Source: Gammaproteobacteria bacterium
Lineage (GTDB): Bacteria; Pseudomonadota; Gammaproteobacteria; JASBUN01
Assembly (NCBI GenBank): GCA_030147845.1
Contig: JASBUN010000041.1
Coordinates: 34,630-98,629, forward strand
DNA: 64,000 nucleotides
Direction of reading: 5' to 3'
Shown here: one piece after another, positions 44,194-63,579 of the stretch
Position numbering within the stretch: position 1 is the stretch's first letter
Layout: the number at the start of each line of letters is the position of its first letter
Program-made: the position numbers and the translations under genes
The notes under the pieces: generated by a model
Databases searched by the model: none
What the model was told of the DNA's origin: nothing
Seen by the model: the letters and a program-made list of their open reading frames with translations, nothing else

Positions 44194-46770
44194 CTATTCG
44201 GAAAGCCCTGATTTGAGTGCGTAAAGGCACTCCAGGGCCTGTCGCGGGGTCAGTGCGTCGGGGTCAATAGCACGCAAACGCTGTACTACCGGGTGCTCCT
44301 CGTTGGCTGCAAACAGCGCCATCTGTGGCGGCTCGGCAGCGCCCGCACTCGACAGCGGGGTCAAGTCGTTGCGTTCCAACACTTCCAGCCGCGCACGCGC
44401 CTGCGCGATGACGCCCTGCGGGACGCCGGCCAGCGCGGCGACGTGCAGCCCGTAGCTGCGATCCGCCGGACCGTCCTTTAGCGCATGCAGAAACACGATC
44501 GAGTCGCCATGCTCGATAGCGTCCAAGTGCGCATTGCGGATGGCGGGATAGGTGCTCGGCAGTTGTGTCAGTTCGAAATAGTGGGTGGCAAACAGGGTAT
44601 AGGCCCGAACGTGGGTGGCGAGGTGGACGGCGACCGCCCAGGCCAACGATAATCCATCGTAAGTGCTTGTTCCACGTCCAATTTCATCCATCAGCACGAG
44701 ACTGGTCGCGGTCGCATTGTGTAAAATATTGGCGGTTTCGGTCATTTCCACCATAAACGTCGAACGGCCGCTGGCGAGGTCGTCCGAAGCCCCGATACGG
44801 GTGAAAATACGGTCCACCGGGCCCAGCTCGACGTGTTTTGCGGGGACAAAACTACCGATATACGCCATTAGCACGATCAGTGCAGTTTGCCGCATATAGG
44901 TCGATTTTCCGCCCATGTTCGGGCCGGTTATTATCAGCATCGGGTGCTGATCGTCGACTTCGGTGTGGTTGGGCACAAAGGCGTGTTCGAGCACACGCTC
45001 GACCACCGGGTGGCGGCCGTCGCGGATAACGATGCCGGGCGCGTCGCTGAGTTCGGGGCACGTATAGTCGAGTGAATCGGCGCGCTCGCTGAGATTGACC
45101 AGTACGTCCAGTTCGGCCAGCGCTGCGGCGCTGAGCTGCAATACCCCCAGGTGCTCGACGAGCTGATCGAGTAAGCCTTCATACAAGGCCTTTTCACGTG
45201 CCAACGCGCGTTCCCGGGCGCTCAGTACCTTGTCCTCGAAGGCCTTCAATTCGGCCGTGATGTAGCGTTCGGCATTCTTCAGTGTTTGGCGGCGGGTGTA
45301 GTCTGCCGGTACCTGTTCCGACTGGCTGCGGCTGACTTCGATATAGAAGCCGTGCACCCGGTTGTAAGCGACCTTCAGGCCGGCGATGCCGCTACGCTGG
45401 CGTTCGCGCGCCTCCAGCTCGACCAAAAAGTGATCGGCGTTTTGGCTCAGGGCGCGCAATTCATCCAGTTCGGCGTCGTAGCCGCCGGCAATGACACCAC
45501 CGTCGCGCACCAACATGGCGGGGGATTCGACCAGCGCCGATGTCAGCAAGGTTTCGATGTGCGGGTGTTGCGCGATCTCGCCTGCCAGGGAACGCAGACG
45601 TGGCGAATCCAACGGCGCCAAATGACGCTGCAATTCCGGCAGTTGGCCGAGCGCGGCGCGCAGGGTAGTGAGATCGCGCGGGCGCGCGGAACGCAGCGCC
45701 ACACGTGCGAGTATGCGCTCGATGTCGCCAATGCCGCGCAGATGGTCGTGCAGCGCCGAGTAGGCGTGTTCGTCGAGCAAGGTTTGAATGACGTGGTGGC
45801 GCATGCGCAGCACTCGCCGGTCGCGCAAGGGCCGATGAATCCAGCGGCGCAGTAACCGACTGCCCATGGCGGTGGCGGTGTGATCCAGCACACCCGCCAG
45901 GGTGAATTCGTGGCGCCCGGTGATGCTGGTGTCGAGTTCCAGATTGCGACGCGTTGCGGCGTCCAGAATAACACTGTCATCGCGCGCCTCGACGGTCAGG
46001 GCGCGCCAATGCGGCAGTGCGGTACGCTGGGTCTCTTGCACATATTGCAGCAGGCAACCGGCGGCGGCGACGGCCGCGGGCATGTCGTCACAGCCGAAAC
46101 CCGACAAATCGTGTGTGCCGAACTGGGTGTTCAACAAGCGCTGGGCGGTGTCGGCTTCAAAGTGCCACGGCGGGCGGCGGCGCAAACCGGGCCGGGCGCC
46201 GATGACGTCGGCAACTTCGCTGTCCTCGCTGAGCAGGAGTTCGGCCGGCTTCAGGCGTTCCAGCTCGCTGGACAATGCTTCGCCGCCGCTGACTTCCTGC
46301 ACACTGCATCGACCGCCACTGAGGTCGAGCGCGGCGATTCCGTATCGGTCACGCTGTTGATGTACGGCAACGAGAAGATTGTCGCGACGTTCGCCGAGCA
46401 GCGCCTCGTCGGTCACGGTGCCGGGCGTGACGATGCGCACCACCTGTCGCTCGACCGGCCCTTTGCTGAGTGCCGGGTCGCCGATTTGTTCGCAAATGGC
46501 GACCGACTCGCCGGCGCGTACCAACTTGGCCAGATAACCGTCGGCGGCATGGTAGGGCACGCCGGCCATGGGGATGGGTTGACCGCCCGATTGCCCGCGC
46601 GCGGTCAAGGTAATGTCGAGCAGACGGGCGGCCTTGCGCGCATCGTCATAGAACAATTCGTAGAAATCGCCCATGCGATAGAACAGCAAAATGTCCGCAT
46701 GTTCCGCCTTGATGCGTAAATATTGCTGCATCATTGGCGTATGCGGCACATTTATTTCTAATGAGCTCAT
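44194..46770 (-). CDS. mutS: DNA mismatch repair protein MutS
   Basis: [27 protein letters not shown] and STFMVEM motifs; 858 aa. Confidence 0.97.
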
Positions 46771-46843: not shown

Positions 46844-46940
46844 TCTCACGAAATATCATCCAATCTCACGAAAAAGTGTAACTTGAAGTGTAACTTTTGC
46901 TGGTGTAACTTTTGTTGAAATCCAAAAGTTACACTTTTTT
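46844..46940. repeat. Repeat array between mutS and the integrase
   Basis: TCTCACGAAA occurs twice (46844-46853 and 46864-46873, 20 bp apart). GTGTAACTT occurs three times direct (46876, 46888, 46903). The 12-mer GTGTAACTTTTG lies at 46888-46899 and 46903-46914, with its exact inverse CAAAAGTTACAC at 46923-46934. The last pair forms a 12-bp stem with an 8-nt loop, followed by TTTTTT (46935-46940). Confidence 0.75.
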
Positions 46941-46975: not shown

Positions 46976-48286
46976 ATGCCAATGGGAACAGTACAGAGTA
47001 CCAAACCTCTATCTTCCCGGACAGTGGAGACGATGAAGCCGGGAGATAAGATTAAGGCCGACACGGGAGAAAACATTGGGTTGCGAGTGAAATGTGGGGC
47101 TACCGGCGTAAAGACATTTTTCTATCGCTATACCAGCCCGATCACCTCAAAGCTCGTTCAGGTGAAAATCGGCAACTTCCCGGAGACCTCCCTGGCCGAA
47201 GCGAGATTGAAGCTCCAGGGACTTAAACAAATTCGCCGCCAGGGGCACTGCCCGGCAACTGAGGCCAAAGAGGAGAAACGGCAGAAACGGGAGCAAGCCC
47301 AGGAATTGGAACAGGGACGAGTAGAGTCAGTAGAGAAGCCCTTCACCGCGGAGAACCTCGTAGAACTCTACCTGACCCAGTATATCGAAGACCGGAAATC
47401 TCCAAGCGGAAGAAAAATCGCCGGTGCACGAAAACCGAAAGGTCAGTCTGAGACGCGCAGAACCCTCTATGGCGATGTGATTCCCAAGTTGGGGGAGATG
47501 CCGGCAAATGCTGTCACGCGAAAGGCTGTGGTGGATATGATCATGGCAATTGTTCAACGTGGGGCAAATGTTCAAGCAGGAAATGTACTGAGAGAGCTTG
47601 CCGCCGCCTACGAATTTGCGATTGGTCTGGGCTATTTTTCAGATGAGTTTGCAAATCCGGCAATTCTCGCCAAATCAAGCCTCAAACAGGCCAAGGTGAA
47701 GCTTACCCATCAACGAGGAAAAAGAGTCCTCTCTGATACCGAGTTGGCGACGTTGCTGAAATGGTTGCCTGGCGCTGATTACACCGCAACACAAAAGAAT
47801 GTTCTTCGATTTACCCTCTGGACAGGGTGTCGTACCGGAGAGGTCTGCAATGCGGCCTGGAAGGACATCGACTTGAAGAAACGGACATTCCACATAAGGG
47901 AGAGTAAGACGGAGGTCGAGCGCTATGTACAATTGCCCCGTCAGGCGGTGGAATTCTTAACAACTCTTCGCCTGACCACTGGAGACTATCTGTTCCCATC
48001 CCAGAAAACGCGGCTGCCTATCCAGCAAAAACAACTAACCGAGCAGGCCTGGCGGATGAGGCAAAGCAACAGCATGGTAAATCTTCCGTCCTGGACACCT
48101 CATGATCTGCGCAGAAGTGTCAGGACTGGTCTGTCACGCTTGCAATGTCCTAACGAAGTGGCTGAAGCGGTATTGGGGCATTCACGTAAGGGGATTGAAG
48201 GAACCTACGATTTGCACAGGTACGAGGCGGAGTGTAGGCAGTGGTTACAGAAATGGGCGGATCATCTGGACTCGCTTATTCGTTAG
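46976..48286 (+). CDS. int: Tyrosine integrase, P4/CP4-57-like with N-terminal arm-binding (DUF4102-like) domain
   Basis: N-terminus LRVKCGATGVKTFFYRYTSP...VKIGNFPETSLAEARLK. Catalytic elements WTGCRTGEV, HDLRRSVRT and LGHSRKGIEGTYDLHRY. Confidence 0.92.
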   Translation: MPMGTVQSTKPLSSRTVETMKPGDKIKADTGENIGLRVKCGATGVKTFFYRYTSPITSKLVQVKIGNFPETSLAEARLKLQGLKQIRRQGHCPATEAKEEKRQKREQAQELEQGRVESVEKPFTAENLVELYLTQYIEDRKSPSGRKIAGARKPKGQSETRRTLYGDVIPKLGEMPANAVTRKAVVDMIMAIVQRGANVQAGNVLRELAAAYEFAIGLGYFSDEFANPAILAKSSLKQAKVKLTHQRGKRVLSDTELATLLKWLPGADYTATQKNVLRFTLWTGCRTGEVCNAAWKDIDLKKRTFHIRESKTEVERYVQLPRQAVEFLTTLRLTTGDYLFPSQKTRLPIQQKQLTEQAWRMRQSNSMVNLPSWTPHDLRRSVRTGLSRLQCPNEVAEAVLGHSRKGIEGTYDLHRYEAECRQWLQKWADHLDSLIR

Positions 48287-48578
48287 TAGTTGAGGCTCGA
48301 TCTTACAGTAAGTGCCAGTCTTCAACTGGCCGTGTTCGACCCGTTCCCGTCATTCCGGCGAATGCCGGAGTCCAGGCAGCCGCAAGGAAACGCGGGTCTT
48401 GGAACGATCCTAAGCAGACGGTTAGTCGTGTAAACTGTCCCCAGAATTCCTCCAGGTATTCTGTTGACCGAAAAACCGGGCTGCTTTACACGGATAATGA
48501 CAAACAAACTGCGGTTACTTAAGGCAAGACTGATGAAGCCTGTAGTGGCCGTTCTACCGATCAAAGGAGGTAAACGCC

Positions 48579-51464
48579 ATGATGGCGCGCGGTTCGGAGT
48601 GGAGAAGATGGGACCTTCACGTCCATACGCCAGACACGGCGCTTGAGGACAATTACGGAAGCTGGGACGAGTATATCGCGGGTATAGTCGCCCAGAATGA
48701 AGTCCGGGTCATTGGCGTTACCGATTACTTCCTGTTTGATAATTACGGTAAGCTAAAGGGTCACCATGAAAGCGGTGCATTGCCCGAAATTGATCTGCTC
48801 ATCCCCAATATCGAGTTCCGCATAGCGCCGCCGACCGATAAAGCAACTGCTTTGAATATTCATCTACTGGTCTCGCCGGAGGACCCTAACCACCAGCAAG
48901 AGATTCATAATGCACTCGCCCGGCTGACATGGGAGTATGGCGGCAAGAATTATTCGTGCATTCGTGACCAACTGATTGATCTTGGAAAAGCGTACGATCC
49001 CACTAAGACAGAAGAAAAGGGCGCACTCGCGGTTGGCGTTACGCAGTTCAAAATTGACTTTTCCAGTTTTCGAAATTGGTTTAAAAGAGAGCCCTGGATC
49101 AGGGGCAATTCCATTATCGTAGCGGCAGCAGGTGATGACGGTCTCTCGGGTTTTTATACCGACGGCGGATGGGCAGGCTGGCGCGAAGAAATCACAAGGT
49201 TTAGTCCTGCGCTATTTTGCGGCCGTCCGGGTGAACGCGACTTCTGGCTCTGCCGTACAACAGAAGAGCATAAAGAAACCGTAATGAAACTGGGAGGGAT
49301 GAAGCCGTGCCTGCACGGTTCCGATGCGCACGGCATGGACAAACTTTTCAAACCTGATCAGGACCGGTATTGCTGGATCAAGGCGGATACGACATTTGAC
49401 GGGCTCAAGCAGGTCCTTTACGAACCTGAAACCCGCGTCCATATCGGTCCGACAGAGCCGGTCTATCATGATGAATCCCGTGTCATCCGCAATATCCGAT
49501 TGTCCGGCTCGGACGGATGGTTTGATGATATAGAAATTCCGCTTAATGCCGGGCTGGTGTCCATCATCGGGCAAAAAGGCTCGGGTAAATCCGCATTGGC
49601 CGAAGTAACGGCCTTTGCTGCCGGAAGCTGGGCGACTGATGAAAAGGGCAGCTTTTTACGCCGCGCTGGCGGACTACTTAATGGCATGCAAGTCGAGCTT
49701 GAATGGTGCGATGGTGAAACAACGTCGGCAGTGCTTGGCGAAGAGCAGTCAGATGATTGTGCCGTGCGCTACCTGTCACAAAAATTTGTAGAGCATTTAT
49801 GTTCTGATGACCGGCTCGGCGACGAGCTTGTCAATGAAATAGAAAATGTCATCTTTTCCTATATTGACGAGAGTGAAAAGCTCAATGCCTCGTCATTTAA
49901 AGAACTCCGGGCAATAAAGACTGAAGGAACCCTCGCACAAGGGCAACGTCTTAGCGACGATATCAAACGCCTCATTGCCGAAGATTGTGAACTGCGCGAC
50001 AAAGCCCGTGCGCTGCCCGAAAAAAAATCGCGGATCAAGACGCTCGCCGATGAGAGGGCGGGGCTTGTCAAACAGATGCCAAAGGCCAGTACACCGGAAG
50101 AGCAAAAAACCCAGCAAGCCTTACAGCAGGCACGTACCACCCTGGCTGGCTTGCAAAAATCGGCAGGAGAAGACAAACAAAAGTTACAGAAGATCAAGAA
50201 TATCAGAACTGAAATCACGTCCTTTGAAACACGTATGCAACGGTTCTATGACGAACTGGAACCGGACCTCATCGAAGTCGATGTTCCACAGGAAAAGCGT
50301 GCGCGTTACAAGCCGGCATTTCCAGGAGAAACAGAGCCACCGCTTGCCGCGCGTGAAACGGCTATCAAAGCCACTATTAATACAAGGCTTGGCACAGAAG
50401 ACGCGCCTGCTTCCGGAACTATCCGCGCCATACAAAAAGAAATCGAAGCTTTGAGCAAGATAGACACTGCTGACAAGGCGCGAGCCAAACGGATTGAAGA
50501 AATCCAAAAACGCATTGCAGCGATTGATACCGAGACGGAAAGGCTCAACAAAGAAATCGAGCAGATTGAAGGTCCTGATAGAAATCGCGTCGGCGCCATC
50601 GGGACAGAACGCATGACGACCTATCGCACCTATTTCGAAAACCTCAAGGACGAGCATGCAACGCTTGCGGAATTGTACTCGCCGATCACGGCCCGTATTC
50701 AATCGGACGCTTCATTATCACAGGAACAAGCTCTCGAATTTTCCATTCGCTGGGAAGTCGATCTTGATACGTGGTTGACACGCGGCGAAGGCCTTTTCGA
50801 TCAGCGCCGGACCATTCCGTATAACACTATGGCCGGACTTAGAAAGGCAGCCCAAGAAAAACTCGTCCCCGCTTGGGCTTCGGGCGATCCCGACCAGATA
50901 AAACCTGCCATGGACGAATTTTTAACCGCGTTTCGGGACAAGAAGTTGCCGCCTTCACAATATATGCGCACAGGAATCACCGTGCAGGACTTGTTCGACT
51001 GGCTTTACGAGACGGAACATATCCGGCTGAGTTACGGCCTCAAATATAACGGTACAGAGCTTGAAAAACTCTCGCCCGGAACAAAGGGGATCGTTCTACT
51101 TATTCTATATCTCGGTATGGACGTGTCGGATTCACGGCCACTGATTGTCGACCAGCCGGACGAAAACCTCGATAACGAGTCGATTTACGAGTTGCTTACC
51201 GGGTACTTCAAAGCGGCAAAGTCAAGGCGGCAGATTATCCTGATTACCCACAACCCCAACCTTGTTGTAAACGCGGATTCAGAACAAGTCATTATCGCGA
51301 CCTGCGCGCGGCGTGAAAATGGCTTGCCGCATATCACCTATGAAGCGGGCGCGCTTGAAAATCCGCGTATCAGGGCACAGGTCTGTCGCATTCTGGAAGG
51401 CGGCACGACGGCCTTTCGCAAGCGTGAAAAACGCTACGCGCTTAATGCTGCCCAGTCGGTATAA
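48579..51464 (+). CDS. PHP-domain phosphoesterase fused to a Rad50/SMC-like ABC ATPase with long coiled-coil insert
   Basis: PHP motifs WDLHVHTP, GVTDY and LHGSDAH. Walker A GQKGSGKSA and Q-loop RYLSQKF. About 300 aa of E/K/Q/L-rich coiled-coil sequence. Signature-like LSPGTKG, Walker B LIVDQPDENLD and H-loop ILITHNPN. GGAGG at 48566-48570 lies 8 nt before the ATG. Confidence 0.8.
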   Translation: MMARGSEWRRWDLHVHTPDTALEDNYGSWDEYIAGIVAQNEVRVIGVTDYFLFDNYGKLKGHHESGALPEIDLLIPNIEFRIAPPTDKATALNIHLLVSPEDPNHQQEIHNALARLTWEYGGKNYSCIRDQLIDLGKAYDPTKTEEKGALAVGVTQFKIDFSSFRNWFKREPWIRGNSIIVAAAGDDGLSGFYTDGGWAGWREEITRFSPALFCGRPGERDFWLCRTTEEHKETVMKLGGMKPCLHGSDAHGMDKLFKPDQDRYCWIKADTTFDGLKQVLYEPETRVHIGPTEPVYHDESRVIRNIRLSGSDGWFDDIEIPLNAGLVSIIGQKGSGKSALAEVTAFAAGSWATDEKGSFLRRAGGLLNGMQVELEWCDGETTSAVLGEEQSDDCAVRYLSQKFVEHLCSDDRLGDELVNEIENVIFSYIDESEKLNASSFKELRAIKTEGTLAQGQRLSDDIKRLIAEDCELRDKARALPEKKSRIKTLADERAGLVKQMPKASTPEEQKTQQALQQARTTLAGLQKSAGEDKQKLQKIKNIRTEITSFETRMQRFYDELEPDLIEVDVPQEKRARYKPAFPGETEPPLAARETAIKATINTRLGTEDAPASGTIRAIQKEIEALSKIDTADKARAKRIEEIQKRIAAIDTETERLNKEIEQIEGPDRNRVGAIGTERMTTYRTYFENLKDEHATLAELYSPITARIQSDASLSQEQALEFSIRWEVDLDTWLTRGEGLFDQRRTIPYNTMAGLRKAAQEKLVPAWASGDPDQIKPAMDEFLTAFRDKKLPPSQYMRTGITVQDLFDWLYETEHIRLSYGLKYNGTELEKLSPGTKGIVLLILYLGMDVSDSRPLIVDQPDENLDNESIYELLTGYFKAAKSRRQIILITHNPNLVVNADSEQVIIATCARRENGLPHITYEAGALENPRIRAQVCRILEGGTTAFRKREKRYALNAAQSV

Positions 51465-51600
51465 AGTCTGTCCAAGAATACATTCTTTTCATAAGGATTT
51501 GTGAAGACCATCGGCATGGAATGAAGGTTTATGGGTTGACCGTTTAGGGCAATGCGTAACTACCTTGCACTTTAACGAATATATTTAGATTTTGATTTTA

Positions 51601-54600
51601 ATGGATGATCTAAACAAGCAAATACCGCCGCCAAAATCATGGATGGATTTTGAGAATCTATGCCATGGCCTTTTTAGTGCAATCTGGAGTGATCCTTATG
51701 CCCAAAAGAACGGCAGGAGTGGCCAGCCGCAACACGGTGTAGACGTTTTCGGATCGAAAAATCAGGAGTATGGCGTTTACGATGGTGTCCAATGCAAAGG
51801 CAAAAACGCCAATTATGGTAGTCAAGCAGATATAGAGGAAATCGAACAGGAAATCGCGAAAGCGGAGAAGTTTTCTCCGGATCTGCGTCACTGGATATAT
51901 GCGACGACTGCGCCCGTAGATTCCAAGTTACAAGAAGCCGCGCGAGAGATTTCGAAAGCGCGGGCGGCCAAGAATCAGTTTACCGTCTCTGTATTCGGAT
52001 GGGAGCAAATAGAATTCTTGCTGTGTAAGCATAAAGAGGTTTTGCGTGCCTTTTATCCCGAATTGGGATTTGATCCAAACGCCTTCATTGAAGAGCTTCG
52101 TAAACAACTTCAATCAGAAATATCCGATCTCACGTGTTTTCTTTCCTCTGCCACGACAAAAGAGGAGCAAAGCCGAAGCATTGTGGGCGATCCTGTGTGG
52201 GTCCCCGTAAAGTTCGGCCAGGGGCGCGGACTCGGGCCAGCCCTCATGGGCCGCTCGATGAGCGCGAGTGACGCCATTTCGTGTCCACAACTACCGGAAG
52301 TATCCGGAGTCATTGCTGACTTATCGCGTGCCTATGCATCGCGCATTGTTGGAGAGCCTGGCTCAGGAAAATCGCTTTCTGCCTTCCAGGCGATGAGACA
52401 CTTTGCCTCCGCAGGGTGGCAGATTTACAAGCTCGTCGATCCGCGCCGACAGGATATAAACATTCCTGATAAATCGAACGGTAGCAAAATACTTCTCTTT
52501 ATCGATGATGCTCACATCATCGATGAATCCCGTCTCAAATTGCTTGAAGAGAAGACCGGGCCGGATCTGTATGTTCTTTCAACCCACAATTCCGAAGACG
52601 GGCGCACATCCTTCCGCAATGCGATTGCTATTGATAGCAGCAGGGCCGTAACGGTAATTGCGAATGCGCTCATGCGCGATCCCCACAGGACGTTAGGAGA
52701 GGTCAGTAAAGTCGATAAGGATGTCGGTGAAAAGATGATGGATATCGGTCTTGAGGACCGCATAAGTGATGCACGGGAACGGGCGAATTGCCCATGGCAG
52801 TTTTGTTTCATTCTTGGTGGTGGCTGGCGTAGAGCAAGTGAATTAGCTGATGCTGCGCGGCACGCAAAGGCCGATATCATTCTTGCAGGTCTTGCGTGCC
52901 GTCAGTTGATATCCAGAGATGAACCTCTCGAAATCGAAGTTGCTCTAAAGCTCCTGTCTTGTGCCGGTATTGATGAAAAATCGGTCAATAACAGTATAGA
53001 TTGGCTCGTATCGCAGCGGTTGCTACTTTCAAGGGAAGATCTGAGAACACCGCATCAGCGATTTTCCGCCATCGTTCTCGGCAAGATTCTTCAAGGTCAG
53101 GATTTACCTGGCAGGGACACAATTGGAAAGCTTCTGCAGCACATGCTCAGAGATGAGTCCTATTCACTTGCAGGAAAGCGCATGCTGCTTCATGAATTGC
53201 GGTTTCAGGGCAATTATGGACGGTGGGCATATCTTGTGCCCGCAGACACACTTGGTGGTGATCTCGCAAAATGCTGGCAGGCAAGTAGCGCGGAAGAAAG
53301 ACTCCACGCCTGCTATTTTCTGAGTGAACTGGATTGCTACTATAATGGCTGGCCGGAGGCGTTGTTTAAAGACCACGAACAAGTTATTGCCGACTGGATT
53401 TCCGCTCCCCAAACACCTGTAGGGTGGGGGCTGGCCCGTCTCATACACGGAATTGGTAACCAGCATCGGGAATATATTTCTTCAATCATTGAAAAAGCCG
53501 ATCCGCTCTGCATAGCCCGAGTGGTGAATAATGTTGATGTTGATAGTACGGCCCATCTTGGGGAACTTGTCGGTGCCCTTGGCTATGTAAGGAACACGGA
53601 TTGGCACCGCGAATTTGCTTCCAAACTAGATAGAGATGCCTTACTAAATTTACCTGGACACTGGCCGGATGGTGAGGACCTCTGGGCTTTTGCCAAGTTG
53701 TGTCAAGCGCTTGACGGAGTGGACGAGAGTCTCGGACTGGACCTGGCTGCAAAGTTTATTCCCGTGGCCCAAAAAGCATATGACCGCGATCCGGTAGAAG
53801 CGTTTCACTTTCTGCACGACATGAATATGTCAGTGTTGAGGATTTACGATCCATTAGGCATTTATGTCGGGAAATTGGGTCCAAGAAATCGTCATCGCCA
53901 GATCGCCCGCCAAATGTTTAAGGAGATCAATGTCCAAAAGCTGGCATATCAGATATCTGAAACCCGGCTCCGCGATATGCAGTCCGCAGCAGGCCTTCTA
54001 TCGATGTTGCACAACGTTTCACCCGCAAAATATGAAAAGGTTATTGATGGTATAGATTGGAACTGCATTGCTGAAACCATCGGGCATCATTGGGACAACC
54101 TACCACATGAGGCGGAAGTGTTTCTTGGTGTTTGCTATGGGGCCGAACCCTCGCGTCACAAGCTGGACGGGCTCATCCTTGATAATCTTGAGAGGATACG
54201 GCTTTTCCCGCCCCGTATTGCTATCGTGAGCCCCGATGCAGCAATTCGTCACGTTGAGGCGGGAAAGGAAATCCGTATTGCGCAGCACGATCATGTCGAT
54301 TGGACATTTGGCCCAGTTGTCCTCGCATTGTTTGATGAAAGGAAGCCAGAACGACTAGAGTCCGCGGTGCAGAGTGCGGAGGCCACCGCAAGCAAGACGT
54401 TTTCGCAGAGAAACCATAGCTGGTTTAAAGACGCGTATGAGTACATCAATATCTTGAATAAAGTAGCGCCAAAAAGTTTGGAGCGAATTCTGGATGGTGT
54501 GGATGTTTCCGGTGCTTCGGAAGGGTGGGCTGATTCCTTGAAGAAGGGAGGAGGCCCAGCCAAGACAGTGGCATTTCTAATTGCGCGCAGCCTTAAGCGC

Positions 54601-54681
54601 GAAGACAAGCTTGGAGAGCTTGCGCAATCATTAAGAAAGCGTTTCCCGCGTAAATCCGTCCTACCGAAAAATAATTCGTGA
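51601..54681 (+). CDS. Mrr-like PD-(D/E)XK nuclease domain + P-loop NTPase + large C-terminal helical region (STAND/Avs-like architecture)
   Basis: N-terminus FENLCHGLFSAIW...GVDVFG...GVQCKG follows the Mrr catalytic-domain pattern (D...QxK). Walker A GEPGSGKS and Walker B ILLFIDDAH. About 650 further residues carry no recognised motif. ATG 51601 is preferred to TTG 51592. Confidence 0.75.
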   Translation: MDDLNKQIPPPKSWMDFENLCHGLFSAIWSDPYAQKNGRSGQPQHGVDVFGSKNQEYGVYDGVQCKGKNANYGSQADIEEIEQEIAKAEKFSPDLRHWIYATTAPVDSKLQEAAREISKARAAKNQFTVSVFGWEQIEFLLCKHKEVLRAFYPELGFDPNAFIEELRKQLQSEISDLTCFLSSATTKEEQSRSIVGDPVWVPVKFGQGRGLGPALMGRSMSASDAISCPQLPEVSGVIADLSRAYASRIVGEPGSGKSLSAFQAMRHFASAGWQIYKLVDPRRQDINIPDKSNGSKILLFIDDAHIIDESRLKLLEEKTGPDLYVLSTHNSEDGRTSFRNAIAIDSSRAVTVIANALMRDPHRTLGEVSKVDKDVGEKMMDIGLEDRISDARERANCPWQFCFILGGGWRRASELADAARHAKADIILAGLACRQLISRDEPLEIEVALKLLSCAGIDEKSVNNSIDWLVSQRLLLSREDLRTPHQRFSAIVLGKILQGQDLPGRDTIGKLLQHMLRDESYSLAGKRMLLHELRFQGNYGRWAYLVPADTLGGDLAKCWQASSAEERLHACYFLSELDCYYNGWPEALFKDHEQVIADWISAPQTPVGWGLARLIHGIGNQHREYISSIIEKADPLCIARVVNNVDVDSTAHLGELVGALGYVRNTDWHREFASKLDRDALLNLPGHWPDGEDLWAFAKLCQALDGVDESLGLDLAAKFIPVAQKAYDRDPVEAFHFLHDMNMSVLRIYDPLGIYVGKLGPRNRHRQIARQMFKEINVQKLAYQISETRLRDMQSAAGLLSMLHNVSPAKYEKVIDGIDWNCIAETIGHHWDNLPHEAEVFLGVCYGAEPSRHKLDGLILDNLERIRLFPPRIAIVSPDAAIRHVEAGKEIRIAQHDHVDWTFGPVVLALFDERKPERLESAVQSAEATASKTFSQRNHSWFKDAYEYINILNKVAPKSLERILDGVDVSGASEGWADSLKKGGGPAKTVAFLIARSLKREDKLGELAQSLRKRFPRKSVLPKNNS

Positions 54682-55113
54682 GCGATAAGTAGTTCTGTTA
54701 TAGCAATTGTTTTCACTATTGCGCGGTATTCGCCTAACGACAAACGTTCTCTTATTGTTCTTGACTCTTGCGCGTGAATGAGTCATGAGTCGGTCATGGC
54801 TATCGAACCGGAGTATGGTAGTACCTTAAAGAGAAAGGCAAAGAATGAGCGTCAGTGACATCGATATCTACCTTACCGCCAATGTTGGCCTGGGGTCTTT
54901 GAATTTGGATTTTCTCAATGCCCGCTCCTGGCTTATTGCTGTCGTTGTCCGGTAATCAGCGATTGTCTCGACTAGGGTGGAAGTTAGCATTCGGGTTGTC
55001 TGAAATCGCCTCCCGCTAACATCCATTCATGGCCGTTCTGAACCACTGTCAGACGGATAGGGCGCGCGACCTCATTTGACAAGGTCTATCGCTCGAGTCT
55101 GAGCTCAAGCAGC

Positions 55114-55392
55114 TTATTGGTGACAAACAATCACATAAGCTGCCAGATTCTGCCGTTTTTCAATGAGAAGTTTTACCACGGCTTGAAGTTCCTCTGTTGT
55201 TTTTCCCGAGGCAAATGCATTTAACATGGTATCCACTTCATGGGCCAGCCAGCCGACAGAACGATTACCAAGGGAAACCCCAGGAGGGAACAAGCCTTCA
55301 CTGATTCGACGATAGAGGGTCGCGTGACTCATCCCGGTTCGATTTAACACCGCTGGTTTTCTTTCGATTCGGATTGCGTGATGCTCAGACAT
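55114..55392 (-). CDS. alpA: AlpA-family phage/island transcriptional regulator (HTH)
   Basis: LNRTGMSHATLYRRISEGLFPPGVSLGNRSVGWLAHEVDTML matches the AlpA pattern. Confidence 0.85.
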   Translation of the reverse strand: MSEHHAIRIERKPAVLNRTGMSHATLYRRISEGLFPPGVSLGNRSVGWLAHEVDTMLNAFASGKTTEELQAVVKLLIEKRQNLAAYVIVCHQ

Positions 55393-55748
55393 ACGCGATG
55401 AATACAGGCTGGTGTGCGATTGTCGGGTGCTTCATGGGTTCACGTGCTCCACCGTGCTTTGATACACAGTTCATACTAACGGTGAGTCGTGCGAGAAAAA
55501 CCTGGGAAAGCGGGCAGACCGGGGCGGGCTTTCGTCATTGAAATCGCGCCGGTGCGTGTCGATGAGCGGCGGCGATTACAGATACTTTTTGAAGTACGCC
55601 ACGCTCACAAGCACGGAGAGGCCTTGACGCTTCTGTCGTAAGTCTTTGGTGTGATGGAGTGGGCCCGGACCAGCGGGCACCGTGATCTTCGGGTACTGCA
55701 GAATGTCAATTATGCACCATCAGTGAAAGACCTGTCCGAAAAGCTCGA

Positions 55749-56015: not shown

Positions 56016-56414
56016 ACTTGTTCCATGGCTTCATCGTTTTCGATGCAATGATTGTATTGGCCTGGTCACAAGGGAATTAGGTCGAAACCCCGGATCCAGC
56101 AGCGGCTTTTCCGCGTATTTTTCGGTACGCGCCGTCCTTCCAGCCGTCTAGTTCACACATACCGGTCGCAGCGTTACTAATAAAGCAGGAAAGCGACTCT
56201 AGAGGGACGTGCTTTCGGAGACGTTTATTTTTGTCCAGGCCACTAACATCCGAAGGGAAGAAATTCATGAAGGAGAAAGTGGTGAAAATCGAACTTTGCA
56301 GTGGCAACCAGCCGTATTTGAATCATGTTTGCGACATCGCACGTAAAGATCCCACTATCGCTTCGCTTCCGCGGGCAACGCCATCCAATCTGGCTTTCCT
56401 ATAGGGTACCGCCA

Positions 56415-57998
56415 ATGGCTAGCCAAGACTCTAGCGCCATGCAGGAACCGGGCATTCGTGACGCGGCCACGACAATCATGCTGGATGTGTGTCGTATCAA
56501 GCCCTATGAACGCAATCCGCGTCGCAGCGAGAATCCGGAATACGATCGCATCAAGGCCTCCATCCGTGCCAATGGCATTGATCAGCCCTTGGTAGTCACG
56601 TGTCGACCCGGCGAAACCGACTACGTCGTCGGTGCCGGCGGCAACACGCGGTTGCACATCCTGCAGGCGTTGTACCAGCAAACGGGTGACGAGCGATTCC
56701 AGTGGGTCGATTGCCTGTTCAAGCCGTGGCGTGAAGAGTCGGATGTGCTGCTGGCACATTTAAGGGAAAACGATCTGCGCGGTGGACTGAGTTTCATCGA
56801 CAAGGCGCAGGCCGTCTTCGAAGCCAAACAACTTCTCGAAGAGGAAATGGGCAACGATAGCCTTTCGCAGCGACGCCTCGAAACGATACTTCGAGATCGC
56901 GGCTACAGCTTGAGTCACGGGCTGATCTCCCAGATGGGCTACGCTGTTCACACCTTGCTCCCGGTGATTCCCCAGGCGCTGAAGTCGGGTCTCGGCCGAC
57001 CGCAGGTGGAGCGGATTCGTGCGCTGGACAGGGCCGCGCGCGCCCTCTGGAAAAAACGCAAGCTGGGTGATGACGAATCCTTCGATGCAGTGTTCGCGGC
57101 ATTGTGTGAACGATACGACGGTCCCGAGTGGGATCTCGAACTGTTGCGCAATGCCATTGAGATTGAGGTTGCGGAAGAGCTCGAGGTGAGCATCCAGGCC
57201 ATTCGTGTTGAACTGGACGCGCACCTTTTAGGGCGCGAGATCGAAACCCCAATCCTTGAGAACGATCATGACGCGGATACACCAGAAGAAAGAGCGCCTT
57301 CTTTTAATGCCATTACGACAAAAGCAAAAAGTGCTGCCGAGGAAAAGATACTTGGTGACTCACGCGGCAACAACGCGGATAAGGCATCCAAGGGTGAAGT
57401 GCCTCCACCGCAACGACCATCGCTTGTCATCGCGCCAGATCCATCGGAGGAAGACTCAGAGGAGCAGCCGGCTAACCCTATAGAGTCAGAGGCGGGTTTC
57501 ATCGCAAGTTCGATCACGCCCAGCCAACTCGCTTCCACGGATCTCAAATCATTGCGTGCTCGGGCCTGGACGCTGGCGGCTCGTCTCGCGCAACGCAACG
57601 GCATCGGCGGCCTGGTCGCGCCGCTGTCCGGCAAGGGACTCGGGTTCATCCTCCGCGACGTACCGGATTCCTCGTTGGCCGAACAGTTGGACGCCGACAC
57701 GCTTGGCCAGGTCTCCATGTTGTGGTGGCACCTGGCGGCTTGTGCGGAGATGACCGTGGCACCACTGGATGCCGTTATCGCCACCTTGTCTGACGACTCG
57801 ATCCTGCGCCAGGCGCTCGAGAACCAGGATGCCGGCCTGCTCTTCAACAGTGTCTGGACCCTCGACCCGGGACATACCGGCTATCGGCTGTGGCGCCAAC
57901 TCGGCGACCAGGACTGGCAGGACTTGCTCAACCTGATGGATACCTACCGCCGCATACATCGTGCGGCGGAGGCCTCGCAGGTCCGGCTCTGGGAGTAG
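56415..57998 (+). CDS. ParB-like nuclease-domain protein (ICE type)
   Basis: IKPYERNPRRSENPEYDRIKASIRANGIDQPLVV and VVGAGGNTRLHIL give the ParB/Srx-fold N-terminal pattern. ATG 56415 lies in the track ORF frame. Confidence 0.8.
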   Translation: MASQDSSAMQEPGIRDAATTIMLDVCRIKPYERNPRRSENPEYDRIKASIRANGIDQPLVVTCRPGETDYVVGAGGNTRLHILQALYQQTGDERFQWVDCLFKPWREESDVLLAHLRENDLRGGLSFIDKAQAVFEAKQLLEEEMGNDSLSQRRLETILRDRGYSLSHGLISQMGYAVHTLLPVIPQALKSGLGRPQVERIRALDRAARALWKKRKLGDDESFDAVFAALCERYDGPEWDLELLRNAIEIEVAEELEVSIQAIRVELDAHLLGREIETPILENDHDADTPEERAPSFNAITTKAKSAAEEKILGDSRGNNADKASKGEVPPPQRPSLVIAPDPSEEDSEEQPANPIESEAGFIASSITPSQLASTDLKSLRARAWTLAARLAQRNGIGGLVAPLSGKGLGFILRDVPDSSLAEQLDADTLGQVSMLWWHLAACAEMTVAPLDAVIATLSDDSILRQALENQDAGLLFNSVWTLDPGHTGYRLWRQLGDQDWQDLLNLMDTYRRIHRAAEASQVRLWE

Positions 57999-58003
57999 GC
58001 TCG

Positions 58004-58612
58004 ATGGACGGGACCAAGGAATCCGATTTGATCACGGCCGTGCTGATGTACGCGATCCGCTGCCTGGCCGAAGGGGATCAAGCCGCGTTGCGCAACATGA
58101 ATTTCGGACCGCGCGAAATCGAGGCGTTGCGCGAGATGAACCTGGCCGATCTCTATCGCGTCGAATCCTTGCGCGCCCATTGCCTGGATATCGTTCTCAA
58201 TCGGGACGTGTACTGGCCCATGATCGAGCATCTGCGCCGTCAGCGCGAATCCGAGGAACTGCAACAAGTGCTCATTGCCGCCGACGCACCGTTGGAGATG
58301 ATGCAAACGCTCTTCGGCTTGGGCTCCCGCGAATACACGCGCCTGCGCCGTATGCTCACTGTCGATCCTTCGGTCGGCCGGCCGGCGGAACCCGATGAAG
58401 CGAGCACGCACAAGCTCTGGAACGCCTGGGTCCAACGGACGGACACCGAAGAAGAGGGTCCGCTCCCCCCGGACGAGTATCTCGCCATCCACCGTGAAAC
58501 CGGTATCTCTATGCGGGCCATATGGAACTTGACGCAACGCTGGAATCAATACGGTGACTTGACGGGTCGAAGCAGTCACGACCCTGTGGAGCGAGCGTGT
58601 TCGGATGGATGA
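58004..58612 (+). CDS. Conserved ICE protein (DUF2857-like by recollection)
   Basis: MDGTKESDLITAVLMYAIRCLAEGDQAALRNMNFGPREIEALREMNLADLYRV. The gene starts 6 nt after the ParB-like stop and overlaps the next gene by 8 nt. The family name is unverified. Confidence 0.55.
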   Translation: MDGTKESDLITAVLMYAIRCLAEGDQAALRNMNFGPREIEALREMNLADLYRVESLRAHCLDIVLNRDVYWPMIEHLRRQRESEELQQVLIAADAPLEMMQTLFGLGSREYTRLRRMLTVDPSVGRPAEPDEASTHKLWNAWVQRTDTEEEGPLPPDEYLAIHRETGISMRAIWNLTQRWNQYGDLTGRSSHDPVERACSDG

Positions 58613-59864
58613 GGGTTCTCGCGGACTCCGGCCCGAGACCCACGCACTGGATGCACTGATACAGGCGACCATCGAACGCGTACAACAGGAATCGGGTAGC
58701 AAGCAGTCCGATACCATGCTGTTCATGGGCAACCGCCATCAGGCGTTCCCCACGCTGGTAGTGCAAGACCCCGTGCTCGAACCCGTGGACAAGTTGGTGT
58801 GGATGGTCATCATGCTGCAGGCCCAGGAGATCGGCGGCAGCACGGCGTTCCCCAGTTACGAGTATCTGGCCAAGAAAACCAACGTCTCCTCCACATCGAC
58901 CATCTCCCGGGCTATCGCCATTCTGCGCGCCACCCGTTGGCTGACCTTGTGTGCGCGGCTGCGGGAGGCGAGCGGCCGCTTCCGCGGCAACGTCTATGCG
59001 TTACACGATGAACCCTTGCCGTTGGTCGACGTCCTGCACCTGGACCCGGACTATATGCAGTTCCTGCAGCAGTCGCTCGGGCATCATCATGCTCGGGTGC
59101 GCCTGGTCGCCAAGGGGGTGTTGGATACCATCGACGAGGACATCCAGGAGGGTCTCGATATCTGCGCCCAAGGCCATCCGCTCGAACGTCGCATGCAAGC
59201 GGCGGAGGCGATCCAGCAGGATTCACCGCGGCGTTATTTCGCATTCAGCGCAAAGGTGATGACCCGTCTGCGCAACGTGGTCGGGGAAGGCGGTACGGAT
59301 CACCGGGACCAAAATTCAAAGGCGGATGAAACAGGGTTCCAAATTTCGAACCCACAAAATTCAAAGTCGAGTAGTTGTAGTAGTTATATAAATAAAACTA
59401 CTACTACAGAACCCGCTGAAGAGAAAATAATTAGCGGCCACGCAGAGGGGGAGCCGTCCCTGATCTACCCCAAGCGTCTCTCTGACAACCAGCGCGAGCT
59501 CGCGGATCGTTATTTGAAATCCGTTTCCGAAACTGCACGTCAGCCCATCCTCGATGAGCTGGAAGGCCGGTTTCGTTCGGAACAGAAGGGCATGAAGCCG
59601 GTGTACGACGAAATGCGCTTCCTGCACTTCTTATGTCGCGCCGCGAACAAGGGTGAGTTCGTGCCGAACCTCGGCATCAAGGTGCATGACGAACGCATCG
59701 AGCGGAAGAAGGCGCGCTTGAGGTACCTGAAGCAACAGGAGCAAAGCCTGGCGGAAGTGAAGCGTCGCGATAGTTCCAGCGCCTCAGGTCAACAACAGCT
59801 CGCCGAGCTACGCAAATCGCTCAACCTGCCGGCGCGTCCACAGACCGACGACGAGTCGGACTGA
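58605..59864 (+). CDS. ICE/pathogenicity-island replication-protein-like winged-helix protein (STY4528-like by recollection)
   Basis: FPSYEYLAKKTNVSSTSTISRAIAILRATRWL is HTH-like. A low-complexity linker (QNSK...QNSKSSSCSSYINKTTTT) separates two domains. The family name is unverified. Confidence 0.55.
   Translation: MDEGSRGLRPETHALDALIQATIERVQQESGSKQSDTMLFMGNRHQAFPTLVVQDPVLEPVDKLVWMVIMLQAQEIGGSTAFPSYEYLAKKTNVSSTSTISRAIAILRATRWLTLCARLREASGRFRGNVYALHDEPLPLVDVLHLDPDYMQFLQQSLGHHHARVRLVAKGVLDTIDEDIQEGLDICAQGHPLERRMQAAEAIQQDSPRRYFAFSAKVMTRLRNVVGEGGTDHRDQNSKADETGFQISNPQNSKSSSCSSYINKTTTTEPAEEKIISGHAEGEPSLIYPKRLSDNQRELADRYLKSVSETARQPILDELEGRFRSEQKGMKPVYDEMRFLHFLCRAANKGEFVPNLGIKVHDERIERKKARLRYLKQQEQSLAEVKRRDSSSASGQQQLAELRKSLNLPARPQTDDESD
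59310..59404. repeat. Iteron-like direct repeats plus AT-only tract flanked by an inverted repeat, inside the replication-protein-like gene
   Basis: CAAAATTCAAAG lies at 59310-59321 and 59355-59366 (perfect 12-mers), with a related AAATTTCGAA at 59341-59350 inside GGTTC...GAACC. GTAGTAGTT (59377-59385) and AACTACTAC (59396-59404) flank a pure A/T spacer. A 14-nt A/T-only run spans 59384-59397. Confidence 0.7.
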
Positions 59865-59880
59865 CCGATACCCGAAATGC

Positions 59881-59901
59881 AGTGGTTACAGTGTAACCAC
59901 T
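59881..59901. repeat. Perfect 21-bp palindrome in the intergenic region
   Basis: AGTGGTTACA-G-TGTAACCACT, 17 nt after the stop of the replication-protein-like gene. Confidence 0.8.
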
Positions 59902-60032
59902 CTCAGCACTCTCTCCCCGGTTATTGTGTCTCGGCGTCAACCACGCCGAACCGTGCGGGAATAATTCCTTGTCGGCCGGCTCTCGTCATGGATTGATGGG
60001 CGACTCATTCACCAGGATGAAGGATATGCCAC

Positions 60033-60833
60033 ATGAGTTCCGGTAAGTCAGACCCAGAACAACAGAACCACCCGGAAGACGCGAGCGTCGATGCCGGGCC
60101 GGGTGCGCTGCGTGGGCAGGTGTGGCTGACGGTCCAGACCCGGCAGGCGCAACGGCTGATCCGGGGGCGCAACGGCAACGCCGACAAACCGGCGATCATC
60201 GGGCTAGTGGGATTTGCCGATCGGCTGCGTGTGATCTGGCAAGCGGCACGCAATGACGATCCCTACGCCGATTGGTGGCTGGTCAAGGTGCACGAGGCGC
60301 TGGAACGGGTGCGTGACCTGATCAAGAACGACCAGGCGGCGTTAGACGCGCAGCTCGAACAGCTCACCGCCCTGGAAGTGGCCGTGGCGGAGTCGATGAA
60401 GCCATACCGGATCGCGCTCCAGTTCGCCAACCCCTACGCCTATCGAGGCGCACAACTGATCGCCGAGTACGACAGGTTTGTGCGCACGTTGTTGACCGCC
60501 CACCATGTGGGAGTGTTGACCGGGGCCGCGATGGAAGGCTCACTCAATGCGGGTGCGCGCAAGATCCGCGGCGCGTTCGCGGTACCGCAAGGTTATCACT
60601 TCCTCAACGTCGATCGCGCGGCACTCCAACAAGGCACCGCCAACGCGAGTCGCGCCAGCCAGCTCATGGGCGAAGTCCCGGAAGACGTATTGAACAGAGC
60701 ACACCAGGCACCACTGGTACCCCGCAAAGTCCGATTCCCCGAAGAGGCGGCCAAGCACATCCGTCTCAAGCCCGTTGATGCCGCACCAAGAGCGGGTATC
60801 GCCGTGGGAAACGACGACGAGGTTAGCACCTAG
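60033..60833 (+). CDS. Conserved ICE protein (PFL_4669/TIGR03761-like by recollection)
   Basis: Long ORF co-oriented with the ICE core; LTVQTRQAQRLIRGR...DPYADWWLVKVHEALE. The family name is unverified. Confidence 0.5.
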   Translation: MSSGKSDPEQQNHPEDASVDAGPGALRGQVWLTVQTRQAQRLIRGRNGNADKPAIIGLVGFADRLRVIWQAARNDDPYADWWLVKVHEALERVRDLIKNDQAALDAQLEQLTALEVAVAESMKPYRIALQFANPYAYRGAQLIAEYDRFVRTLLTAHHVGVLTGAAMEGSLNAGARKIRGAFAVPQGYHFLNVDRAALQQGTANASRASQLMGEVPEDVLNRAHQAPLVPRKVRFPEEAAKHIRLKPVDAAPRAGIAVGNDDEVST

Positions 60834-60908
60834 TTTTCGCTGGTATGCAACGCGTCGCCCGCCATACTACTGCGACGACATGATTAATGCCGGTAGGGCC
60901 GAAGCCGT

Positions 60909-61289
60909 ATGACTAAGGCGACAGCAGGCAAACGTATCGCACTTCTGCTCGACCCGCGGGTGGCGTTTGAGGCCCTGATCCTGAACCGGCTGGAGCGAAT
61001 TCCGGAAGTCCGGCGTCAAGAGTGGCTGCGCGGGCTCCTGGTGCAGGGCTTTCGCCAGGAATGCCAATCGTTGCGGGTGGTACAGGACGAGGTTGTTCCG
61101 CAACCGATGAGACCACCACAAGGCCAAGGCGTGTCAACGAGGCAACCGCGAACCGCGTTTGCCGCCTGGTTGGCGCAACCATCGGCTCCACGCGTCATCG
61201 AGACCGCGGCGACGCCGGCGGCGGTCGAAGTGAACACCGCAGCGGGTCAGGCTAAGCCCTTCGCCGGCTTGAGAAAGGTGATCGGTTGA
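60909..61289 (+). CDS. Hypothetical small ICE protein
   Basis: ORF directly upstream of the ParM-like gene. Its N-terminus is KRIALLLDPRVAFEALILNRLERIP. No motif was recognised. Confidence 0.4.
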   Translation: MTKATAGKRIALLLDPRVAFEALILNRLERIPEVRRQEWLRGLLVQGFRQECQSLRVVQDEVVPQPMRPPQGQGVSTRQPRTAFAAWLAQPSAPRVIETAATPAAVEVNTAAGQAKPFAGLRKVIG

Positions 61290-61328
61290 GGCTGGTTGCA
61301 TAAAAGACGAGACAAGAACGGAGGAGAA

Positions 61329-62354: not shown

Positions 62355-62482
62355 CAATGGTTTTATACGTGGTCACTGCGGTCTCAGTGATAAACAAGGC
62401 GCCTTAGGACCGTGCGACAGGCGCCGTGGCGAAAGCCTCGGTCCAGCTTCAAGGAAACACAATCGTTTCCGTTTTTCACCAA

Positions 62483-62510
62483 CCCTGCCGGGTAAGCCTT
62501 CCCGCCAGGG
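62483..62510 (+). repeat. ICE intergenic hairpin motif, copy 1 (upstream of the DUF3577-like gene)
   Basis: CCCTG-CCGGGTAAGCCTTCCCGC-CAGGG, preceded by TTTTTCACCAACCC (62472-62485). It shares the leader and the GCCGGGWAAGC core with copy 3. Confidence 0.6.
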
Positions 62511-62553
62511 TCGCGCTTGCTCCGGATGAAACCAACCTGAAGGAGTAAGCGCT

Positions 62554-62958
62554 ATGTCCAACAACGAAAGTACCAAGTATTTCGATCTTCACACCAACGG
62601 CATCGGTTATCTCAACCGTGTCCGGGAAGTGTCACCGGAAGAGGGGACCCCCTTTCTGAGTGTCACCATCGCTGCCCTTCGCGGCAGTGTCGACGACGTC
62701 CAGTACACGCATTTCGAGTGTCCCGTGTCCGGCAAGAAGGCGCAGGAAGTCGTGCGCCAACTCAAATCGGCCGTGGAGGGCAAGTTGAAGGTGCTCATCG
62801 GATTCACGCTCAGTGATCTGTATGCGGAGCCCTTTACCTTCAAGAACGGTGACAAGGCCGGCGAGACCGGTGTCAGCCTGAAGGCCCGACTGCTTCGCGT
62901 GTCATGGGCCAAGGTCGACGGCCAGCCGTTCTTCACGGAGCAAGATAGCGCTGCGTAA
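62554..62958 (+). CDS. DUF3577-like (ssDNA-binding-like) ICE protein, by recollection
   Basis: MSNNESTKYFDLHTNGIGYLNRVREV...FLSVTIAALRGS. It occupies the conserved position before radC in this ICE family. The name is unverified. Confidence 0.55.
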   Translation: MSNNESTKYFDLHTNGIGYLNRVREVSPEEGTPFLSVTIAALRGSVDDVQYTHFECPVSGKKAQEVVRQLKSAVEGKLKVLIGFTLSDLYAEPFTFKNGDKAGETGVSLKARLLRVSWAKVDGQPFFTEQDSAA

Positions 62959-62968
62959 ATCAACATCC

Positions 62969-63554: not shown

Positions 63555-63579
63555 CATTCGTAATTTTTCACAACCCCAG

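Follow-up and report, generated by a model that had tools for sequence, protein, structure and literature searches.

A TrlF-family gene and an Avs-like Mrr–nSTAND3 gene side by side in the exchangeable cargo slot of an integrative element next to mutS

A 64,000-nucleotide stretch of a gammaproteobacterial contig (JASBUN010000041.1, assembly GCA_030147845.1, positions 34,630 to 98,629 of the forward strand), referred to here as the window and numbered from its first letter, carries a block of low G+C content (GC) next to mutS. The block opens with a P4-type tyrosine integrase gene, closes with an alpA-family gene and holds two large genes between them. Gene 1 encodes a member of the TrlF family, and gene 2 encodes an Avs-like STAND protein. 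A first-pass annotation of the sequence had proposed that the two form a cooperative two-gene defence cassette, with two independent single-gene systems as the alternative. Based on the architecture of both proteins, the neighbourhoods of their homologues and the comparison with sibling elements, it is probable that the two immune-type genes in this slot of an integrative and conjugative element (ICE)-type element next to mutS are functionally independent, that each is self-contained, and that they have been collected side by side.

The integrase–alpA interval

The map of open reading frames (ORFs) confirms the first-pass description of the interval. The two genes are the sole cargo between the P4-type integrase and alpA, they are co-oriented, and they lie 127 or 136 nt apart depending on the start codon chosen for gene 2; every further ORF of at least 85 amino acids (aa) in the interval is embedded in one of the two, in a different frame or on the opposite strand. 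The ATG at 51601, which gives a protein of 1026 aa, is the likely start of gene 2, because homologues begin MDD... and because the protein called in L082, a near-identical copy of the island, has 1026 aa. The remaining spacers measure 292 nt (integrase to gene 1) and 432 nt (gene 2 to alpA). The Pfam domains of the integrase, Arm-DNA-bind_3 (2.8e-12), Phage_int_M (7e-7) and Phage_integrase (3e-23), constitute a P4-type architecture. The right flank is an ICE-type backbone with DUF2857, HTH_36, AcaB, ParM-like, DUF3577 and RadC genes. Coordinates of all features are collected in Table 1.

GC is 51.4% in the TrlF gene and 49.8% in gene 2, and the integrase (52.0%) and alpA (47.3%) genes are as low as the two cargo genes, as against 62.2% in mutS and 60.1% in the ICE backbone (56325–64000). 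The compositional contrast that had been noted in the first pass is therefore real (~50% versus 60–62%) but smaller than claimed: counted per line of 60 nt, G+C averages 30.1 (range 18–41) across the two genes, 37.6 in mutS and 36.0 in the backbone. A search of Rfam found no family at the locus, and a repeat search gave nothing linked to the cassette. No tRNA was found by a search of the entire 64-kb window; the P4-type integrase adjoins mutS instead, and the element reaches its far end outside the window. A scan for promoters and terminators gave no site in the 136-nt gap at the thresholds used, and sites in the cassette were fewer than in shuffled controls.

Table 1. Features of the integrase–alpA interval and its flanks (window positions)
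Feature	Position	Strand	Basis or remark
mutS	44194–46770	−	Pfam MutS_I-V; left neighbour of the low-GC block
P4-type tyrosine integrase, 436 aa	46976–48286	+	Directly upstream of mutS; marks the left border of the low-GC block
Gene 1, TrlF family, 961 aa	48579–51464	+	ORF listing
Gene 1 N-terminal domain (residues 1–300), putative PHP-type metal-dependent phosphoesterase/nuclease	48579–49478	+	Motifs
Gene 1 ABC ATPase head split by coiled coil	49485–51437	+	Motifs, AlphaFold2 helices
Intergenic spacer between gene 1 and gene 2, 136 nt	51465–51600	.	Sequence, GC; AT-rich, 36% GC
Gene 2, Avs-like STAND protein	51592/51601–54681	+	1029/1026 aa by start codon
Gene 2 N-terminal Mrr-type (PD-(D/E)xK) nuclease domain, presumed effector	51601–52071	+	Mrr_cat, motifs
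Gene 2 P-loop NTPase core, nSTAND3 type	52297–52791	+	Walker A/B, family-level Pfam
Gene 2 C-terminal all-helical region, presumed sensor	52792–54678	+	Helical/winged-helix part, then ARM/HEAT-like solenoid
Right-hand breakpoint of exchangeable cargo	55030	.	Homology of sibling ICEs starts here and runs rightwards
alpA-family regulator/excisionase-like gene	55114–55392	−	Pfam Phage_AlpA PF05930, 9.9e-14; convergent with gene 2
Small conserved ORF, 88 aa	55749–56015	−	Between alpA and ICE backbone; no Pfam match

Architecture of the two proteins

Gene 1 was matched by the NCBIfam model NF045780 (TrlF_fam_ATP) with 605.7 bits, against a cutoff of 350, and the alignment runs from residue 4 to residue 953 over positions 1–943 of the 944 in the model. 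This match places gene 1, over its full length, in the named TrlF family, which has more than 4000 homologues, many at 60–82% identity. Pfam reports SMC_N, AAA_21, AAA_23 and AAA_15 on the protein. Motif conservation was read from an alignment of 20 TrlF members. In the N-terminal domain D12, H14, H16, D49, E79, H95, H246, D249 and H251 are invariant, several of them within the motifs WDLHVHTP (H14, H16) and HGSDAH (H246, D249, H251); these invariant motifs we take to be the hallmark metal ligands of the PHP superfamily. The motifs of an ABC ATPase are likewise invariant in all 20 sequences, namely Walker A (GQKGSGKS, 331–338), the Q-loop (Q401), the signature (LSPGTKG, 831–837), Walker B (LIVD858) and the H-loop (H891). 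The same invariance extends along Walker B as LIVD-Q-P-D-E (residues 858–862, window 51150–51164), with Q859 occupying the position of the usual catalytic Glu of ABC ATPases. Speculatively, the D858–Q859 pair may reflect slow or regulatory nucleotide turnover, or nucleotide sensing, rather than a fast motor.

In the AlphaFold2 (AF2) model of gene 1, long helices extend over residues ~440–708 and correspond to a coiled coil of ~270 residues that splits the ABC head; the best Foldseek matches of the model are Rad50, MukB, Smc and JetC. Because the confidence of the model is low (predicted local distance difference test (pLDDT) of 67.6), the Foldseek result was used only for the SMC/Rad50-like head and the coiled coil. 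Sequence searches of the PDB with both proteins and with a TrlF N-terminal profile returned only marginal matches to a Rad50 P-loop, APS-kinase and WbbZ, which are uninformative. Gene 1 encodes a coiled-coil-containing, Rad50/SMC-like ABC ATPase fused in a single chain to a putative PHP domain.

This layout invites comparison with several known systems. A head split by a coiled coil and a putative nuclease coupled to an ATPase are features shared with Mre11–Rad50/SbcCD, JetC and LmuB, and the PADLOC model for LmuB matches gene 1 weakly. In contrast to Mre11/SbcD and JetD, the nuclease candidate of gene 1 is a PHP-motif domain fused in cis and not a separate subunit; in contrast to Rad50/SMC-type ATPases, the coiled coil is short (~270 residues) and Walker B is followed by Gln rather than Glu. 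Ppl, an exonuclease, is an anti-phage system of a single gene (PMC12904381, PMC11482910); a recent review describes it as acting 3′–5′ on single-stranded DNA, kept inactive by bound NTPs and switched on at 3′-OH ends (PMC12904381). Like E. coli Ppl, gene 1 may unite a PHP-type domain (putative, at motif level) with its P-loop ATPase in one polypeptide, and the two proteins are collinear at both ends, with residues 243–287 of gene 1, in the region of the PHP motifs, corresponding to Ppl 198–239 (NCBIfam model, 3e-4; PADLOC model, 8.5e-5) and residues 823–952, in the ABC C-lobe, to Ppl 759–881. Gene 1 differs in that it scores 103.6 bits against an NCBIfam cutoff of 1000 for Ppl, and 89.9 bits with the PADLOC Ppl model, over partial stretches only; since the score lies so far below the cutoff, gene 1 belongs to a different family from Ppl.

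The family itself is known from trlR–trlF–trlG, the temperature restriction locus (TRL) of Photorhabdus laumondii, an operon that restricts growth at 36 °C (PMC7554251). All mutations selected in Photorhabdus fell in trlG, which encodes AlbA_2 and HATPase_c_4 domains, and none in trlF, whose product was annotated as a histidinol phosphatase and carries no assigned role (PMC7554251). Gene 1 has the same size as Photorhabdus TrlF and the same layout of an N-terminal ‘histidinol-phosphatase-like’ part plus an ATPase (PMC7554251). Unlike the TRL operon, the present locus has neither a trlG partner nor a recognizable trlR, and an unrelated STAND gene follows; the neighbours of gene 1 are the integrase and the Mrr–nSTAND3 protein, neither of which matches AlbA_2 or HATPase_c_4. 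A fusion of TrlG into gene 2 was considered and rejected, as gene 2 gave no AlbA_2 or HATPase_c_4 signal.

Gene 2 has 546 homologues, mostly full-length at ~1025 aa and annotated as hypothetical or as ‘nSTAND3 domain-containing NTPase’; 448 matches were confirmed among GTDB species genomes. The tripartite architecture of antiviral STAND proteins is present, with an effector domain, an NTPase with intact Walker A and B motifs and a C-terminal repeat region. Pfam Mrr_cat is found in 5 of 21 family members (best 1.2e-6), and the nuclease site (HGVDVFG...GVQCKGK), with invariant D51, Q67 and C68 and a K69 conserved to at least 90%, fits the D...QxK arrangement of the Mrr type. The NTPase carries a Walker A motif GEPGSGKS at 254–261 (K260 invariant) and a Walker B motif at D305–D306. 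Pfam nSTAND3 is found in 19 of the 21 members (best 4.5e-8) and nSTAND_NTPase5 in 16, the window protein itself reaching 21.3 bits against nSTAND3, under the gathering score of 27.2. At the threshold used there was no NCBIfam match, and PADLOC gave only a marginal one (PDC-S73, E = 0.006).

The AF2 model of gene 2 (pLDDT 87.8) consists of a small α/β N-domain, an α/β NTPase and a helical solenoid of ~600 residues, the C-terminal region being all-helical with a pLDDT of ~90 or above. The best Foldseek match is 9jap_A, the SIR2–STAND protein EfAvs5 (E 4.8e-6); the AVAST5 filament 9nc9 matches as well, and the remaining matches are ARM/HEAT solenoids (karyopherins, SF3B1, CAND1 and β-catenin). 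Avs5 has a Sir2–nSTAND3–repeats architecture (PMC12931631). Gene 2 shares with Avs5 (AVAST type 5) the order of effector, NTPase and helical repeats and, at the level of its family, an NTPase of nSTAND3 type, and its best PDB match is EfAvs5; it differs in having an Mrr-type effector (D51...Q67xK69) with no Sir2 match. Avs1–4 recognize conserved phage proteins (as summarized in PMC12931631) and resemble gene 2 in their layout, in which a nuclease effector at the N terminus and a STAND NTPase precede a repeat sensor at the C terminus, the sensor being presumed for gene 2. The NTPase of gene 2 is, however, of another clade (nSTAND3 at family level), its presumed sensor is ARM/HEAT-like and not TPR, and no hidden Markov model (HMM) of these systems matches it.

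The N-terminal effector is swapped among members of the gene 2 family. One member (P0105) carries a trypsin-like protease domain as effector and another (P0080) a different domain again, and several loci align only from ~residue 195 onward. In Sphingobium (L081, 9992–14794) the same Mrr-like N-domain (52% identity) is joined instead to a P-loop protein of 1600 aa that is unrelated to gene 2. Such N-terminal modularity is typical of STAND immune proteins, and gene 2 represents an unnamed family of a known kind, an Avs-like combination of nuclease, STAND NTPase and repeat sensor. The domain analysis thus agrees with the first-pass view that each gene is a defence-type fusion of a nuclease and an NTPase, the PHP assignment being at motif level. 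The prospect, also raised there, that each would map to an already named system holds for gene 1, as a TrlF-family member related to the single-gene Ppl, and not for gene 2.

Neighbourhoods of the two families and exchange of the cargo

Neighbourhoods were surveyed for 84 TrlF loci (7–10 kb flanks) and 81 gene 2 loci (up to 10 kb flanks). With the co-occurrence of homologues followed in both directions, adjacency of the two genes was never seen outside near-identical copies of the island. A gene 2 homologue stood near TrlF in 0 of the 84 TrlF loci. A TrlF-like gene stood near gene 2 in one of the 81 gene 2 loci, that of Caballeronia ptereochthonis (L033), and it is not adjacent there: it is 28% identical and lies 5.6 kb upstream, with a gene for a 1728-aa NTPase in between. 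The closest TrlF relative (82% identity) occurs without a gene 2 homologue, and the closest gene 2 relatives (58–59% identity) occur without TrlF. Across the loci surveyed there is no conserved linkage of gene 1 and gene 2, and the pair does not constitute a conserved multi-gene system. This outcome is one that the first pass had named as refuting its two-gene cassette.

In L033 the TrlF-like gene, the gene for the 1728-aa NTPase and the gene 2 homologue are co-oriented in a row (1338–13072). This row looks like a defence island of single-gene systems.

Other occurrences of the gene 1–gene 2 pair are confined to copies of this island with 94–99.8% nucleotide identity. One copy (L082) is 99.8% identical to the window from ~47500 to 55628; a second (L168) is 94.5% identical and keeps the 3′ end of TrlF, a third (L169) covers the gene 2 region only at 95%, and a fourth (L167), also at 95%, comprises the STAND gene and the backbone. 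Retention of the pair in near-identical islands reflects shared descent and is therefore not independent evidence of conservation. In L167 gene calling split the STAND gene into two ORFs, 408 and 327 aa long (3–2225), and the split may represent a frameshift or pseudogene, or an assembly error.

The genomic company of both families is overwhelmingly variable, with 67 of 98 neighbour gene clusters of TrlF and 88 of 120 of gene 2 being singletons. TrlF recurrently adjoins HsdR/HsdM/HsdS, ResIII and methylases of type I/III restriction–modification (R-M) systems, as well as HEPN-DUF499, TIR and DUF4917 genes. At ~16 TrlF loci an hsdR/hsdS/hsdM, ResIII, methylase or DUF499 gene is abutted with gaps of ~0–190 nt, often 0–25 (loci with an R-M or HEPN-DUF499 neighbour: L089, L090, L096, L097, L127, L103, L121, L125, L143, L152, L159, L091, L092, L128, L131 and L163), which suggests a frequent operon-level association of TrlF with R-M systems. 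The closest TrlF relative is preceded by a small integrase and followed by small ORFs and a DUF4917 gene. One of the closest gene 2 relatives lies beside a CBASS operon and toxin–antitoxin pairs on a plasmid-like contig, and the other lies near Abi_C and DUF4917 genes; more generally, gene 2 recurrently adjoins other giant NTPases and HsdS. Scans of viral contigs gave one TrlF locus and no gene 2 locus, and neither family is therefore a typical cargo of phages or satellites.

The slot itself could be delimited by comparison with sibling ICEs. Four contigs or groups of contigs (L171 with 17 similar places, L172, L173 and L175) encode an AcaB identical to that of the window and have the same backbone and alpA region, at 96–97% identity from 55030 rightwards; the two longest reach the window end at 64000. 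Where the window has TrlF and the STAND gene, left of alpA, these ICEs have an RND efflux operon that encodes MFP, an ACR_tran protein of 1097 aa and an ORF of 191 aa. Look-ups with the exact alpA and 88-aa proteins yielded nothing of use for the DNA on the left of the RND cargo. The breakpoint falls inside the gene 2–alpA spacer and marks the right edge of the swappable slot. Because an RND operon occupies the same slot in sibling ICEs, the defence pair is one of at least two alternative cargos. The integrase–alpA interval is a variable-cargo slot of an integrative element, made up of a P4-type integrase, an AlpA gene and exchangeable cargo. The first-pass description of the integrase-proximal position as a hotspot stands in this sense of exchangeable cargo. 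A literature search for a tie between mutS and ‘core defense hotspots’ found nothing.

At the left edge, the farmland-metagenome contig L082 is ~80–87% identical to the window over the mutS 5′ end and the spacer (from 46294 on), ~95% identical over the first 500 bp of int and 99.8% identical from ~47500. This shift in identity indicates a putative recombination or transfer breakpoint inside the integrase gene, and the difference between the island (99.8%) and the mutS flank (~80%) suggests that the cargo segment has recently moved laterally or recombined between related hosts.

Two further elements were observed around the slot. At 46871–46939 the motif (A)GTGTAACTT occurs four times, in direct orientation three times and once inverted, the inverted copy giving a hairpin of 13–14 bp; the copies lie in the spacer of 37% GC that directly precedes the integrase start, are conserved in L082 and may be arm-type sites of the integrase or operator sites. 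The 88-aa ORF beyond alpA was called in every sibling ICE contig that has the region, and its sequence is helix–turn–helix/excisionase-like.

Two independent genes or one system

Two independent single-gene systems, the alternative that the first pass had left standing, fit both the neighbourhood data and the self-sufficient architectures of the proteins. By analogy, TrlF would be a single-chain counterpart of Mre11/Rad50-type machines, acting as an NTP-binding Rad50-like dimer; as judged from Ppl, it would bind NTPs and DNA ends, and its PHP-type domain would degrade invading or replicating foreign DNA from the ends. For gene 2, a mechanism modelled on Avs1–5 would begin with recognition of a protein of a phage or other mobile genetic element (MGE) by the C-terminal ARM/HEAT-like solenoid. 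The nSTAND3 NTPase would then drive oligomerization, which would switch on the N-terminal Mrr-type nuclease and result in cutting of DNA.

Several points weigh against this reading. The 84 and 81 loci surveyed are subsets of larger families. Gene 1 and gene 2 are co-oriented, no terminator was detected between them, and the two may be co-expressed or functionally synergistic in this island. The defence role of both genes is a prediction from architectures, conserved motifs and defence-island contexts, and the sole experimental paper on a TrlF locus describes temperature restriction via TrlG, not TrlF, and makes no mention of phage (PMC7554251). In particular, the PHP assignment is putative. 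Pfam PHP was undetected in 20 of 20 TrlF members even at E values up to 1, and the PDB sequence searches with gene 1 and with the TrlF N-terminal profile gave no PHP match, so that the call is at motif level and not at model level; it is built on the motifs and the short Ppl match, in a part of the protein where the AF2 model is poor. Gene 2, in turn, was missed by all PADLOC v2 Avs models, and its global TM-score with EfAvs5 is low (0.25–0.30) at an identity of ~12%.

Among the other explanations, TrlF could be a promiscuous accessory module, that is, a portable DNA-end processor for neighbouring DNA-targeting systems such as type I/III R-M, TrlG or, here, the STAND nuclease. At this locus the STAND nuclease would cut first after sensing a phage protein, and TrlF, as an NTP-gated Rad50-like exonuclease, would finish the degradation; the pair would then be synergistic, a sensor-cutter plus a degrader, with no conserved operon being needed. 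The ~16 TrlF loci that abut R-M or DUF499 genes are consistent with such a role, as are the reported dependence of Ppl on 3′-OH ends produced by other nucleases (PMC12904381) and the interleaving of TRL genes with type I R-M genes on pYR3 (PMC7554251). Many TrlF loci, however, have no nuclease neighbour, as reflected in the high proportion of singleton clusters, R-M genes are common in any defence island and their adjacency may be mere co-location, and an interaction of TrlF with its neighbours is conjectural. We consider each part of this explanation unlikely: the general role, the order of events and the synergy of the pair.

Alternatively, one or both genes might serve the physiology of the element or the host, through addiction or stabilization, exclusion of competing ICEs and plasmids, or a stress- or temperature-linked restriction of growth. 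Both genes ride on an ICE, the viral contigs are nearly devoid of either family, and the Photorhabdus TRL operon restricts growth (PMC7554251), all of which would be in keeping with a physiological function. Against it, the mutations selected in Photorhabdus all spared trlF (PMC7554251), this locus lacks a trlG-type gene, and the architectures and neighbourhoods of both families are of the type found in anti-MGE immunity. We give this explanation only a small chance.

An obligate cooperative two-gene system, in which one protein (e.g. the SMC-like TrlF, on DNA) would act as sensor and its partner (e.g. the STAND nuclease) as executor, as the first pass had proposed, is very improbable: the co-orientation at 136 nt with no predicted terminator, the similar GC of the two genes and the retention of the pair in island copies speak for it, but adjacency is not conserved (0 of 84 and 1 of 81, the latter non-adjacent), the nearest relatives of either gene occur singly, each protein already unites its own NTPase with a nuclease-type domain, and the retention is explained by common ancestry, so that cooperation is left unsupported.

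Two independent, self-contained genes thus being the preferred reading, the arrangement is most likely no new two-gene system but two genes juxtaposed, as is ordinary in defence islands, in the cargo slot of an ICE. The tempting false lead of a ‘new SMC + STAND two-gene system’ is removed, and two single-gene candidates remain. Gene 1 represents a very large conserved family, TrlF, for which the sole phenotype so far is indirect; the family resembles Ppl, to which it is apparently related, and is often located within R-M operons. Gene 2 represents an unnamed Mrr–nSTAND3–solenoid family with ~450 members among GTDB species genomes that is invisible to the PADLOC v2 HMMs tested. The integrase–alpA slot beside mutS is a clean example of cargo exchange within one ICE lineage, defence genes alternating with an efflux pump. 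If either gene protects against phage, a widespread family would be added to the catalogue of single-gene defences and to the models used by defence finders.

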